The notes beneath the pieces were generated by a model. That model made no database searches. It had not been told where the DNA came from and worked only from the letters and a program-made list of their open reading frames with translations. The translations under genes were made by a program, and so were the position numbers. DNA of 43,103 nt from UHGV virus genome UHGV-0195171; one strand, given 5' to 3'. Positions 1,972 through 6,349 of the stretch are shown here, piece by piece (position 1 is the first letter of the stretch; each line of letters begins with the position of its first letter). Source of the DNA: a virus.

Positions 1972-2000
1972 CCTGCGCCTGCAACAAAGAGGAAAGACCA

Positions 2001-4130
2001 ATGACCATATACAACGGCTTATTTGAGCCCAAGAAATCGGCAATCAAAGACTGCGGTGCCGTGCAGCTGGCGATCGCCGTCGAAGCACCGAACAAGAAAG
2101 TCGCTGAAAGCATTATGACCGGAAAACTCTGGGAGTCTTACCCGGCGAACGGAGACAACTATTTCAAACCTAAGCTGTGGGAACACATTGAAGGCCAGCC
2201 ACTGCCGGCAGTCGGCCAGTTCGATGAACATTTCGCCCAGGAAAATACCTTTGATGGTGAAAAATGGGTGGCTAACAGCCAGGATGACGGCGCCACCGAG
2301 TTGCCGGCAGGCGATGAAGTTATCGATCTGATGACGGTATCCCCCAGGGAGCGTTTTGCTGCTGTATTACTCTTCAGCAAATTAGAGATAAACGGCCAGC
2401 TCTATTCGCAGGTTGTAGATTATCTTGATGATCTGGATAACCACAACGAATCCATAGAAGAGGATGACCGTTTTAATTTCAATGTGCTTTGCGCCCTGCA
2501 CAATAACGAACCAGTGAAACATATGCACGTGGAAGGTCTGAACAATCTGATCCATGGCATCTTCTCCCATTTTGAAAACCAGATGCCGGGTAAAGCGGCT
2601 ATTTCTCAATTTGTAAAACGCTGGCTTGAAAATCCCGGTAAACGCGAAGAAATGGTACCAGGCCAAAATTATGCCCCCAGCACTGATAACAACGTTAAAA
2701 TCGCGCCAAAGCGTGGTTATAAACATACCTACGCAACACTGGATCAGGAGATCGCTGTTGCGCTGCTCCCTATCTCTCCCGACGCGCCAGTATTATCAGG
2801 CAACCTTCGCGACGCGGAGAAAATCATTGCAGACGATCGTGAGGATTTTAAACGTTGGTCTGCATCACTGCATGTCACACCGAACATACTCAAATATGAC
2901 CGTGCCAGCATTTTCGGCGTAGTGCAGAACGTTCCGGCGAAAGATACTTACCATTTTCCGGAAAGTCTGCGCCGCCATATTACTTCATGGCTTGAAGCTA
3001 ACGGCCGCTTTGAAGAAGACGAAGGCTCATCACAAAAACAACCGACAGCGGAGCAAAATACCGCCTCAAACGTGGTCAAAAAAGAGGAAGTGCCGCCGCC
3101 GGTTGTAACCGATACCCAGGCCAAACAGGCGCGTGAGACGCTCAACGATATGGGCTATGGCGTATATGCCTCTGGTGAAGGAGCAGAGCCAGAAGAGAAG
3201 TTGAGTGAAAAAGTAAAAACTATCGTTCAGGACGTTGATCAGCTTGTTGAACGAATTAACCGAGAAGAGAACCTGCCGAAAGCTTCCGAAGTCGTCCAGA
3301 GCATTAACGAAATGCAGGAAACAGAACGTGACAATCTGGAACTATGGAAACGAGTTTTCAAAACTGATGAACGGTTTACTAAAGCCTTTACGCAGAACGG
3401 CGGCGGCACCTCGATCAATGGCACGTACCTAACGATGTTAGCAACACGTGAGTTTGGCTTGAAAGGGAGCGGCTGGGGCGTCGATATTCTGGAAGAACGC
3501 TTTGATGATGGCGCACCAATTACACGTACAGTAAAAGGAGCTGACGGTAATAATACATGGGAACTGATCCCTGATGGTAATGGTGGCTTCCTAACTGAAA
3601 AACACCATGTGATAAAAATTAGGCTGTGGTACCTGGTAAACGGTGTTCGTGGTGAAGAATACGCCTACGGATGTACCCCTTACATTTACGGCAGTAAATA
3701 CGGCCCTATCTGCGACGGCGAAGCTACTAAAAAATCACTAACTGACGCCACCAAAAAGGCATTATCCGGCCTCGGATTCAGCGGCGATATATTTATGGGG
3801 CTTTACGACAATCTGGAGTACCGCCAAAAGAACAAGGCCGAATTTGATCTTAAGAACGCCAGCGAAACCGCCGAAGATGCAGCGCGGTTGCGTCAGGAGT
3901 TCGATGACAAACTAACCCGCGTCGCCAATACACTAGCACATGGCGTAACAGTGAACGAAATAAACGGTGTGTTCTCCCCTATCGCACGTGAAATCGATGT
4001 TCACATTAAGGCCGCACAGGCCAACGGCGACAAGCAACATGAACGCTATCTTTCTGGTCGCCTGCGCCGCCTGATTGCCATTAAAGATGGTCGTCTCAAA
4101 GAACTGAATAAAGCCGAGGAGAAAGCATAA
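2001..4130 (+). CDS. Rad52/Sak/Erf-superfamily single-strand annealing protein with a roughly 440-aa N-terminal extension
   Basis: The C-terminal third carries the Rad52-like annealing signature (…YAYGCTPYIYGSKYG…EATKKSLTDATKKALSGLGFSGDIFMGLYDN…). Preceded by GAGGAAAGACCAATG. Located upstream of the gp157-like gene, as in phage recombination modules. Confidence 0.6.
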   Translation: MTIYNGLFEPKKSAIKDCGAVQLAIAVEAPNKKVAESIMTGKLWESYPANGDNYFKPKLWEHIEGQPLPAVGQFDEHFAQENTFDGEKWVANSQDDGATELPAGDEVIDLMTVSPRERFAAVLLFSKLEINGQLYSQVVDYLDDLDNHNESIEEDDRFNFNVLCALHNNEPVKHMHVEGLNNLIHGIFSHFENQMPGKAAISQFVKRWLENPGKREEMVPGQNYAPSTDNNVKIAPKRGYKHTYATLDQEIAVALLPISPDAPVLSGNLRDAEKIIADDREDFKRWSASLHVTPNILKYDRASIFGVVQNVPAKDTYHFPESLRRHITSWLEANGRFEEDEGSSQKQPTAEQNTASNVVKKEEVPPPVVTDTQAKQARETLNDMGYGVYASGEGAEPEEKLSEKVKTIVQDVDQLVERINREENLPKASEVVQSINEMQETERDNLELWKRVFKTDERFTKAFTQNGGGTSINGTYLTMLATREFGLKGSGWGVDILEERFDDGAPITRTVKGADGNNTWELIPDGNGGFLTEKHHVIKIRLWYLVNGVRGEEYAYGCTPYIYGSKYGPICDGEATKKSLTDATKKALSGLGFSGDIFMGLYDNLEYRQKNKAEFDLKNASETAEDAARLRQEFDDKLTRVANTLAHGVTVNEINGVFSPIAREIDVHIKAAQANGDKQHERYLSGRLRRLIAIKDGRLKELNKAEEKA

Positions 4131-4696
4131 TGACTTCCACAACTGCAATCGCTATTGCTGCTGATATGTCTAAACTCCAGGCGCTTCTGGAAAATGAAGA
4201 CGGTTCTGGTCTGTCAGCTGAAATGATCGCCGATACAATGGAGGGGCTCGAGCTGCAGCTCGGCGACAAACTCGACGCGGTATTCGTCCATGTTCGCAAC
4301 CTTGAAGGTCTGGCGAAAACCTGCGACGAAGAAGCCAAACGCCTGGCCGCCCGTAAAAAGTCATTCGAAGGTAAGATCATCAACCTGAAGAATTATGTGC
4401 TTCAGTGCCTGCTGGCCGCGGGGCAGGATACCGTTAAAACTGCAAAGAACACCTTCACCGCCCGCAAAGGTGCAATCAACGTGGTGATCGATAATGTCGA
4501 TTTACTTCCGGATGATTTGGTAACCGTTGAGACAGTGGTTACGCCGGACAAAAAGGCAATCAAAGAGGCTATCGAATCCTCGCAGGCGGCGGCTGCACAG
4601 ATTACTGCTGATGGCGGAGAGATACCGGGAGAACTGTTAAATCCAGTGCCGGGCGCTCACCTTGAGATTGGCGAACGTTCACTGCAGGTGCGCTGA
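4130..4696 (+). CDS. Gp157-family protein (Sipho_Gp157-like); recombination-module accessory
   Basis: 188 aa. Charged N-terminal half, then a …FTARKGAINVVIDNVDLLP…TPDKKAIKEAIE…AHLEIGERSLQVR pattern typical of Gp157 proteins found next to Sak/RecT. ATGA overlap with the upstream gene. Confidence 0.5.
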   Translation: MTSTTAIAIAADMSKLQALLENEDGSGLSAEMIADTMEGLELQLGDKLDAVFVHVRNLEGLAKTCDEEAKRLAARKKSFEGKIINLKNYVLQCLLAAGQDTVKTAKNTFTARKGAINVVIDNVDLLPDDLVTVETVVTPDKKAIKEAIESSQAAAAQITADGGEIPGELLNPVPGAHLEIGERSLQVR

Positions 4697-4697
4697 T

Positions 4698-4883
4698 ATG
4701 CTGAGACTATCTCTGAAAAAAGGTGATGCAGTTCATATCGTGTTACCGGATGGGACTAACGCAATTATCGAAGCGCTGGCCCGGTGTGAACTCGGTATGC
4801 ACTTCCCCCGCAATATCAAGATAACGCGTGAGGATGGTGCATTCCAACCGAAACAAAACCTGATTAAGCATAATCAGAAATAG
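4698..4883 (+). CDS. CsrA/RsmA-like small RNA-binding protein (carbon storage regulator family homolog)
   Basis: 61 aa from the ATG at 4698 (stop/start overlap TGAtATG). The N-terminus is MLRLSLKKGDAVHIV versus CsrA MLILTRRVGETLMIG. The core is LGMHFPRNIKITRED versus CsrA IGVNAPKEVSVHREE, including the conserved Arg at the position equivalent to CsrA R44. Confidence 0.5.
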   Translation: MLRLSLKKGDAVHIVLPDGTNAIIEALARCELGMHFPRNIKITREDGAFQPKQNLIKHNQK

Positions 4884-4932
4884 CCCATCACTACCGCTAG
4901 CATTGTGGTCTACCAATAAACCGGAGATCACA

Positions 4933-5127
4933 ATGCTACGTTGGCAACCAGGTGTAGTTTTACTTTCTGAATTCGATATCAAAATTGGCAGGCTATCAGC
5001 CAGCGTTAGAAAAAGGACTCTGACCCAGTCCGATATCCATATCGCTTGTGATACAGCTGACAACGCAATAGCCCGGCTTATGAGGAAAGACCATGACCAG
5101 AGAAAACGATCTCCTGACCGACGATGA
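4933..5127 (+). CDS. hypothetical small protein
   Basis: 64-aa ORF from the ATG at 4933 with a GGAGA SD. It overlaps the start of the next gene by 35 nt, so it is uncertain. Confidence 0.3.
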   Translation: MLRWQPGVVLLSEFDIKIGRLSASVRKRTLTQSDIHIACDTADNAIARLMRKDHDQRKRSPDRR

Positions 5128-5317
5128 ACTGATAGAATTGACCGGATACCGATTTCCTTCTAAGCAGTGCTCGGCTTTAGCTAAATCCGGTATTTCGTTT
5201 GTTAAACGTCGGGACGGCCGGCCTCGCGTGACATGGACACATGTGAATGCAGCGCTATTCGGAGACAGAAAAATAGTTGCTGACGAAGAAGAAAAACCAA
5301 ACTTTGATGCTATTTAA
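5093..5317 (+). CDS. DUF4224-type excisionase-like protein (putative Xis)
   Basis: 74 aa with LTDDELIELTGYRFPSKQCSALAKSGISFVKR…, directly upstream of int. Preceded by GAGGAAAGACCATG. Confidence 0.55.
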   Translation: MTRENDLLTDDELIELTGYRFPSKQCSALAKSGISFVKRRDGRPRVTWTHVNAALFGDRKIVADEEEKPNFDAI

Positions 5318-5320
5318 ATT

Positions 5321-6349
5321 ATGGGAAGAAAAAGAAAAAACCAGGAGGATAACAAACTTCCTCCCCGCGTTTATTCAAATAAGTACAGTTACTATTACAA
5401 ACCAACCTCAAAAGAATGCATCACAATTGGCCCCGTATCAATGCCCTTGTCTCAGTTATGGGCAAGATATGAGGCATTAATTGACGAACAGGCCAACGTA
5501 ATGACATTCAGTAAATTATGGGGGTTATTTCTTAAGAGTGCCTATTATCTTGAATTGAAACCAAGGACGCAGAAAGATTATCTGCAACACCAGAAAAAGC
5601 TACTTGCTGTATTTGGGAAGATTACGGCAGATAAAATTAAAACTGAAGATATCAGGATGTTTATGGATAGGCGAGGCTTGCAAAGTAAAACGCAGGCAAA
5701 TCATGAAATGAGTAGCATGTCTCGTGTTTTCAGATGGGGTTTTGAGCGGGGTATGGTTAAAGGGAATCCTTGCCAGGGCGTCAGTAAATTTAAAGCTGTC
5801 GCCCGCGGAAGGTACATTACCGACGCGGAATATGAGGCTATCTATAATGAGGCGGATGATGTCGTTCGTACAGCAATGGAAATTGCCTATCTTTGCGCTG
5901 CCCGCCTGGCTGATGTACTCGGCATGCAGTGGCGACAGGTAACGCCGGAAGGAATCTTCATTCAGCAGGGTAAAAACAATGTTAGCCAGATCAAGCAGTG
6001 GACAGACCGGCTTAAACAGGCTTTCGAACTCGCAAAAACATTCTCTAATTCCGGCAATCCAGGAGCATTCGTCCTGATGGGCTCACATGGTAGCGGGTTC
6101 AGTAAAAGAGGATTCAGCCACCGATGGGAGGAGGCAAGGCATAAAGCTTCTGTAAAACTGGGGTACGTTCTCGACTGTACGTTCCACGATCTGAAGGCGA
6201 AAGGTATCTCTGATTACGAAGGAAGCAGCCGGGATAAACAACTGTTCAGCGGACATAAAACAGAAAGCCAGGTTCTGATTTATGATCGTAAAACGAAGGT
6301 GTCACCCACTCTCGACAAGCCGCCAATTGAGACTAAAAATTCTAAGTGA
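5321..6349 (+). CDS. int: tyrosine integrase, lambda Int family
   Basis: 342 aa. Lambda-Int-like N-terminal arm-binding region (LPPRVYSNKYSYYYKP…). Catalytic-domain motifs …AARLADVLGMQWRQV…, …HDLKAKG…, and SGHKTESQVLIYDRK with the catalytic Tyr. It is transcribed toward the attP core. Confidence 0.85.
   Translation: MGRKRKNQEDNKLPPRVYSNKYSYYYKPTSKECITIGPVSMPLSQLWARYEALIDEQANVMTFSKLWGLFLKSAYYLELKPRTQKDYLQHQKKLLAVFGKITADKIKTEDIRMFMDRRGLQSKTQANHEMSSMSRVFRWGFERGMVKGNPCQGVSKFKAVARGRYITDAEYEAIYNEADDVVRTAMEIAYLCAARLADVLGMQWRQVTPEGIFIQQGKNNVSQIKQWTDRLKQAFELAKTFSNSGNPGAFVLMGSHGSGFSKRGFSHRWEEARHKASVKLGYVLDCTFHDLKAKGISDYEGSSRDKQLFSGHKTESQVLIYDRKTKVSPTLDKPPIETKNSK

Follow-up and report, generated by a model that had tools for sequence, protein, structure and literature searches.

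CsrA-type proteins are master translational regulators of bacteria, and the CsrA homodimer is interdigitated, with β1 and β5 of one chain pairing with β4 and β2 of the other. Copies of CsrA are known from phages, to our knowledge none of them with an assigned role. A phage census reports csrA alleles in 30 of 2517 genomes; with E. coli CsrA as the query, PSI-BLAST recognises them at 26-63% identity (Sobrero and Valverde 2020, PMC7366521). In coliphage PTXU04, plaques shrink when the csrA homologue (gp28) is knocked down (PMC11879866). Given the catalogued alleles and the PTXU04 knock-down, a phage-borne csrA is not a new concept. The CsrA chain consists of five strands followed by a helix, L4 and R44 are critical RNA-binding residues in both CsrA and RsmE, and the stems preferred by CsrA have four or fewer base pairs; at the psl leader, RsmA stabilises a hairpin formed by the Shine-Dalgarno (SD) sequence and its anti-SD (PMC7652899). 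A second relevant system is the start-associated sequences (SAS/ESAS) of cluster K mycobacteriophages, which were described in 2011 without a known trans factor (PMC3203893).

We analysed a 43,103-nt stretch of the virus genome UHGV-0195171 (hereafter, the window), which amounts to the nearly complete genome of a temperate phage. A sequence-only reading of it had proposed that a 61-codon ORF in the early-left operon encodes a CsrA/RsmA-like RNA-binding protein.

The 61-codon gene and its operon

On the + strand, the window starts with a cI-type repressor gene (19-483), followed by about 800 nt without a credible ORF and then by small genes. The leftward early operon extends from the repressor gene as far as xis and int (Table 1), and the proposed place of the CsrA-like gene within it was correct. 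Wherever the neighbours were listed, the order exonuclease, Gp157, CsrA-like gene, Xis and Int was invariant; it was seen in Pectobacterium phage ZF40, Serratia, Salmonella bongori, Sodalis, Brenneria, E. coli and a metagenome contig, and it spans three Xis families (DUF4224, Exc and HTH_17). In related loci, the Pfam domains of the exonuclease are YdfE_N/C or Exonuc_VIII, and Gp157 is the constant upstream neighbour of the CsrA-like gene. The small ORF between the CsrA-like gene and xis was annotated in five loci and recovered from the DNA elsewhere. One locus is without it, that of P0016 (L012 4001-4204, on a JGI metagenome contig), an outlier in which N44/L45 replace R44/E45 and whose longer C-terminus overlaps an HTH_17-type xis.

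Table 1 Coordinates of the features discussed, as positions in the window
Feature	Position	Strand	Remarks
Exonuclease gene, 709 aa	2001..4130	+	phrog_2489 'exonuclease'
Gp157 / Mu Gam-like gene	4130..4696	+	Pfam Sipho_Gp157, E 7e-34
Probable divergent CsrA-superfamily ORF	4698..4883	+	61 aa; PHROG 2482
Conserved stem-loop, about 20 bp	4891..4944	+	Begins 8 nt past the end of the CsrA-like gene
64-aa ORF	4933..5127	+	phrog_27062 (unknown function); no Pfam match
Excisionase gene xis, DUF4224 type	5093..5317	+	Initiation region 5082-5095 is GAGGAAAGACCATG
Tyrosine integrase gene int	5321..6349	+	Last gene of the operon
Start-associated motif GAGGAAAGACC	1989..1999	+	Candidate binding site
Further start-linked copies of GAGGAAAGACC	1328-1338, 5082-5092	+	Candidate sites
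Further start-linked copies of GAGGAAAGACC	42274-42264, 39643-39633, 22396-22386	-	Candidate sites

The ORF is real as it had been written, running from ATG 4698 to TAG 4881-4883, conserved and under purifying selection. Its 61-aa product, MLRLSLKKGDAVHIVLPDGTNAIIEALARCELGMHFPRNIKITREDGAFQPKQNLIKHNQK, is matched over its full length by PHROG 2482 (E 2e-39), which is filed under 'unknown function', and has a positive net charge by residue count. The frame was intact across 117 loci, whose 85 distinct coding sequences translate into 45 distinct proteins, and dN/dS against relatives was 0.04-0.13, counted only where dS was unsaturated. About 40 protein clusters of the family were found in a collection of 5.8 billion proteins, and the family was recorded in prophages of Klebsiella, Raoultella, E. 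coli, Salmonella bongori, Citrobacter, Enterobacter, Serratia and others. A PADLOC scan of the gene and its neighbours matched no defence system.

The TGA of the Gp157-like gene (4694-4696) lies one base before the ATG of the CsrA-like gene (TGAtATG), a spacing that makes translational coupling of the two plausible in the window phage. Stop and start codons abut in the Klebsiella-, E. coli- and Salmonella-type phages, whereas the Serratia- and ZF40-type relatives have a gap of 32-41 nt after Gp157 and a separate ribosome-binding site for the CsrA-like gene. The coupling put forward in the sequence-only reading is thus plausible for the window.

A segment of 1.6 kb (3800-5400) shares 92.5% identity with two GenBank records named Stenotrophomonas phage vB_SmeS_BUCT708 and BUCT709. 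At the protein level, relatives are found in Klebsiella, Raoultella, Serratia, Salmonella bongori and other Enterobacterales. Because the named and IMG/VR relatives point to hosts of the Klebsiella/Raoultella type, the Stenotrophomonas host label of OM816834/OM816835, the GenBank phages nearest to the window, looks doubtful.

Probable distant kinship with CsrA and predicted structure

Judged by sequence comparison, the family is probably a far-diverged branch of the CsrA superfamily. Direct comparison gave little. The check proposed with the sequence-only reading, an HMM search with PF02599, aligned residues 1-45 of the window protein ungapped to positions 1-45 of the model (hmmscan, E 0.005), at 17.2 bits and so below the curated gathering score of 27. 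Among seven other family members, one reached E 0.048 with PF02599 and six had no match, and NCBIfam had no match to the window protein at E<=1. A search of the PDB with the family profile did not find CsrA chains, and hhalign of the family against canonical CsrA (gammaproteobacterial CsrA, both by itself and after the addition of B. subtilis CsrA and RsmE) scored 13.5, which is noise (95th percentile of shuffles, 13.4).

The link was instead made by two metagenomic proteins, P0015 (59 aa) and P0017 (94 aa), which a HMMER search of 1.8 billion representative proteins with the family HMM returned at E 5e-4, with alignments running from Met1 to about residue 50. Both score above the gathering threshold of the Pfam CsrA model (34.9 and 51.6 bits, respectively) and are matched by TIGR00202 (9e-6 and 2.5e-8). 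They share 39-42% identity with the window protein; P0017 reaches 42% over 50 residues (BLASTP 1e-12), and has 30% identity to P0053, a near-identical variant of E. coli CsrA. When used as tblastn queries on 2.3 Gb of phage DNA, P0017 and P0015 had the CsrA-like family as their top match (6e-5 and 7e-5, respectively), and the next match of P0017 was a Bacillus phage gene annotated as CsrA. Among the PHROG models, both matched phrog_2482 best, and also phrog_9500 'CsrA-like regulator'. The two profile comparisons far exceeded their controls, with hhalign scores of 56.7 between the family and the intermediates (best of 200 column shuffles, 16.9) and 60.8 between the intermediates and canonical CsrA (best of 100 shuffles, 22.0). 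A further protein search returned only near-identical gammaproteobacterial CsrA and left the set of intermediates unchanged, and synteny was uninformative on the short contigs of P0015 and P0017.

Other search results were set aside. When the window protein itself was compared with PDB sequences, nothing was returned beyond chance matches to PRL phosphatases. The family profile matched the C-repeats of staphylococcal Bap (7dm0) at E 6e-8 summed over two repeats, by way of residues 11-43 and a 'v.v.FPDGT..' β-hairpin, and several long repeat proteins matched through the same hairpin, which makes them false leads for small β-proteins; the 33-residue 'FPDGT' match to the Ig-like repeats of Bap was judged to be motif-level and rejected as homology. 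A paper on TldR/csrA-linked control of flagellin concerns chromosomal csrA genes, separate from the phage family.

An AlphaFold2 model of the monomer, with the family alignment as its sole input, had a mean pLDDT of 80.8 and predicted β-strands at residues 2-6, 11-15, 21-25, 30-34 and 41-45, while residues 46-61 were modelled without a helix at a pLDDT of about 60. This tail ends in a conserved LIxxNQK. As CsrA consists of five strands and a helix, the model agrees with it in the number and positions of the strands and disagrees in the helix; the CsrA β-strand pattern noted earlier is thus also what the model predicts. Fold searches with the monomer model returned cupins, TRAP and FN3-like sandwiches and no CsrA, although a monomer does not fairly test for a domain-swapped dimer.

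Seven positions are invariant in all 45 distinct family proteins, namely M1, G9, D10 (E in CsrA), G19, I24, R29 and P37. L2 is present in 44 of the 45, L, M or I at position 4 in 43, and E45 in 43, and the equivalent of CsrA R44, which the sequence-only reading had singled out, is conserved in 44. These family-wide conserved positions coincide with ones that CsrA conserves too. R6/R7 of CsrA are replaced by L6 and K/A7, with K or R at position 8 in 42/45. Compared with canonical CsrA, the β2-β3 turn holds a PDG insertion common to the family and the intermediates, and the β3-β4 turn is shorter in the family than in the intermediates.

The links through the intermediates, the predicted strands and the conserved residues together support the designation 'divergent CsrA-superfamily member'. 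The family membership proposed from the sequence alone therefore stands as distant homology by way of intermediates, but the Pfam and NCBIfam thresholds are not reached and a direct profile match to canonical CsrA is absent.

Candidate RNA sites in the operon

The conserved stem-loop downstream of the CsrA-like gene was predicted by folding at a dG of -28.1 (z -4.1). Its upper stem and loop contain the SD sequence GGAG (4923-4926), and its 3' arm takes in the beginning of the 64-aa ORF (AUG 4933 and the first four codons). Across 49 distinct sequences, 84.9% of the cells were paired, versus 27-55% with the partner slid; compensatory changes were found in 11 of the 20 pairs, and no shuffle reached the observed covariation score. 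The frequent G-U pairs indicate a + strand RNA. The 64-aa ORF overlaps the start of xis by 35 nt, and within the phage collection the set of records that have it is identical to the set that have the CsrA-like gene. It is left uncalled in some annotations, and shares 67% identity with its ZF40 counterpart (44% for the CsrA-like protein). By analogy with known CsrA sites, the SD of this hairpin is a candidate site for the CsrA-like protein; its GGA is the SD itself, and some relatives carry GAGG or GGGGG instead. Against such a role, the stem far exceeds the four or fewer base pairs preferred by CsrA. A role of the stem as a translational coupling device or as an RNase III site would explain it equally well.

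The second candidate is a short motif at gene starts. The exact 9-mer GGAAAGACC occurs 10 times in the window versus about 0.3 expected, and six of the copies form GAGGAAAGACC(N0-1)ATG. Three of the six stand at the starts of genes on the - strand, the others at the exonuclease gene (initiation region 1989-2003, GAGGAAAGACCAATG), at xis and at a 47-aa ORF. One more copy (1187), which lies ahead of a 37-codon reading frame, is without the leading GA. The ZF40, Brenneria and Sodalis types have GAGGCAAGACC at xis and the exonuclease gene (with one base different at the ZF40 exonuclease gene), and, Sodalis excepted, also at the start of the CsrA-like gene itself. The consensus across the lineage is GAGG(A/C)AAGACC, and the form GAGGAAAGACCAUG, which occurs at xis and the exonuclease gene, is a candidate RNA target.

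The motif lies 0-3 nt ahead of the ATG at a subset of genes in both directions of transcription, as seen in the window and in L001, L002, L005, L010, L011, L013 and L161, and it is retained at xis across differing Xis families. A small hairpin, GCGCCUGACC(A)GCGC, often precedes it and includes the stop codon of the upstream gene. All IMG/VR loci with several copies of the motif belong to the lineage of the CsrA-like phages; where such a locus seemed to be without the gene, the contig has it in another locus or ends before its position. P0016, the only family member without R44, comes from a locus without the downstream hairpin, the 64-aa ORF and the motif at gene starts. The co-occurrence of motif and gene is suggestive of a functional link, confounded by common descent, and the R44-less exception is a single lineage.

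Several hairpins were found in the leader (645-1250, + strand), at about 663-679, 713-729, 1103-1117, 1168-1184 and 1217-1234. They have covarying stems and an invariant GAAAGA hexaloop closed by G-C, and contain GGAAAGACC (one example is GCCGGGAAAGACCGGC); CUGACAGCC often precedes them, and they look like boxB/nut sites. An identical hairpin unit occurs in phage mEp390 just after the repressor gene; mEp390 is absent from the tblastn matches of the family, and the 6.5-kb locus examined shows no CsrA-like gene. The leader hairpins are thus not a dedicated partner of the CsrA-like protein, and the G-C closure of the hexaloop means that the GGA is not free in the loop. The mEp390 unit and the GGA that is not free are the grounds on which these hairpins, the 'GGAAAGACC-containing leader' of the sequence-only reading, were rejected as a CsrB-like sponge or decoy. 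It is more likely that they belong to the transcription control of the operon. Rfam gave no match at gathering thresholds, and a dedicated GGA-rich decoy RNA was likewise not found.

Two other features of the leader were observed on the + strand. A non-coding segment of 165 nt (about 727-892) shares 71-89% identity with mostly unannotated DNA in about 150 phage records, including Klebsiella phages, Stx phages, Salmonella SPN1S, Enterobacter Tyrion and mEp390, where the copy lies directly downstream of the repressor gene. The segment has no Rfam match and may act in cis as a put-type leader RNA. Positions 918-1037 match the RprA sRNA model over its full length at a sub-threshold score (39.2 bits versus a cut-off of 70, E 0.007) and end in a GC-rich hairpin and a T run (about 1010-1037), like an intrinsic terminator within the leader.

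Possible functions and comparison with known systems

On balance, and by analogy with CsrA, we lean towards a CsrA-like dimer that would bind GGA-containing ribosome-binding sites and thereby set the translation of phage messages. The protein would represent a very divergent CsrA/RsmA branch, small, basic and all-β, belonging to one lineage of temperate phages of Enterobacterales. Within the leftward early operon it would be expressed directly between the exonuclease and Gp157 genes on one side and xis and int on the other. By the CsrA analogy it would most likely form an interlocked homodimer, whose β1 and β5 surfaces (L2, the hydrophobic residue at position 4, K/R8, R44 and E45) could contact the GGA-containing sites. 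One candidate for such a site is the SD-bearing top of the downstream hairpin, which may already mask the start of the 64-aa ORF overlapping xis; the other is GAGG(A/C)AAGACC, which marks the starts of xis, of the exonuclease gene and also, among phages of the ZF40 type, of the CsrA-like gene itself. Dimerisation, RNA binding, the identity of the targets and the direction of regulation are what we infer for this protein.

A more far-reaching version, which we put forward tentatively and consider unlikely, makes the CsrA-like protein the trans factor of a start-associated-sequence regulon that would also read the SD in the hairpin of the 64-aa ORF and xis. Through GAGG(A/C)AAGACC at gene starts it would act on xis and the exonuclease gene, on its own gene too where the phage is of the ZF40 type, and on a few genes of the replication and late sides. 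The synthesis of Xis and the recombination proteins would then be timed or limited, which could bias excision versus stable lysogeny at the level of translation.

Three other explanations compete with translational control through GGA-containing sites. Little weight is given to a CsrA-derived fold that has lost RNA binding and works through protein contacts, as an accessory of the exonuclease or Gp157 or with its LIxxNQK tail on a host factor. The adjacency to Gp157, invariable while the downstream Xis and Int families vary, would fit such a partner, as would the abutting stop and start codons in the Klebsiella-, E. coli- and Salmonella-type phages, the conserved C-terminal tail that is specific to the family and absent in CsrA, and the loss of R6/R7 and the α-helix of CsrA. 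Yet the best-conserved surface positions are the ones with which CsrA contacts RNA (L2, position 4, R44 and E45), and the protein is positively charged; moreover, gene order in a phage operon is weak evidence for physical partnership, and distant Gp157 homologues (about 30% identity) occur in phages outside the matches of the CsrA-like family. We regard as quite improbable an action on the Csr system of the host, whether on CsrA targets, on the CsrB/CsrC RNAs or through inactive mixed dimers with host CsrA, although the sequence-only reading also allowed for effects on host genes. Two reports propose host manipulation for csrA alleles of phages and plasmids (PMC7366521, PMC11879866), and the named genera of the family are Enterobacterales, several of which also yielded chromosomal CsrA sequences. 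However, the similarity to host CsrA is at noise level, the loops are altered and the helix is absent, so mimicry or mixed dimers are less likely here than for canonical phage alleles.

That the protein has no kinship with CsrA at all, and is a generic small β-protein with the common hairpin pattern ML.L..G..v.v..DG, is very unlikely in our judgement. The sub-threshold score against the direct CsrA profile would agree with it, and so would the Ig-like Bap repeats and long repeat proteins, whose E-values match or surpass the ones of the CsrA-like proteins, and the fold searches, which gave cupins, TRAP and FN3-like sandwiches without CsrA. But the repeat matches span 16-34 profile positions (within about 8-43) of multi-repeat proteins, whereas the CsrA-like intermediates are short (59 and 94 aa) and align from Met1 to about residue 50 at 39-42% identity. 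Both hhalign legs exceed every shuffle widely, independent PHROG models concur, and the monomer fold search is an unfair test for a domain-swapped dimer.

If the protein binds RNA, as in the reading we favour, it would make the translational control of excision and recombination genes by a phage protein accessible to experiment, and would be a candidate protein for lineage-specific start-associated motifs. Should the regulon version be true, it would be the first protein for a SAS-type motif and a CsrA-fold regulator of new RNA specificity. If it does not bind RNA, it would show the extent to which the CsrA fold can drift to another use.

With CsrA/RsmA (PF02599; E. coli CsrA 1Y00, RsmE 2JPP) the family shares a length of about 60 aa, an ML.L start, G9, an acidic residue 10, P37, R44-E45 and five predicted strands at matching positions. 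It differs in its scores under the cut-offs, the absent helix, the replaced R6/R7, the PDG insertion and the LIxxNQK tail. Like the csrA alleles of phages and plasmids, including PHROG 9500 'CsrA-like regulator', it is a CsrA-type protein on a mobile element; unlike them, it is filed as 'unknown' in PHROGs and has a fixed site by xis and int of temperate phages. The sequence-only reading had called such a placement unusual. Phage csrA as such is known (30/2517 genomes, PMC7366521), but ZF40, which carries the family, is absent from the text and Table 3 of that census. What is new is a cryptic, helix-less branch missed by standard models, its fixed place by xis and int, and its association with a structured start site and with the motif.

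The layout at 4891-4944 resembles that of RsmA at psl in that an SD/anti-SD hairpin lies at a gene start, where a CsrA-type protein could by analogy stabilise it, but the stem of about 20 bp is stable alone (dG -28). The start-associated motif is like SAS/ESAS in being lineage-specific, asymmetric and SD-containing, in lying 0-3 nt before the ATG and in recurring at genes of different families. It differs from SAS/ESAS in its sequence, GAGG(A/C)AAGACC, in its hosts, and in co-occurring with the CsrA-like protein as a candidate factor.
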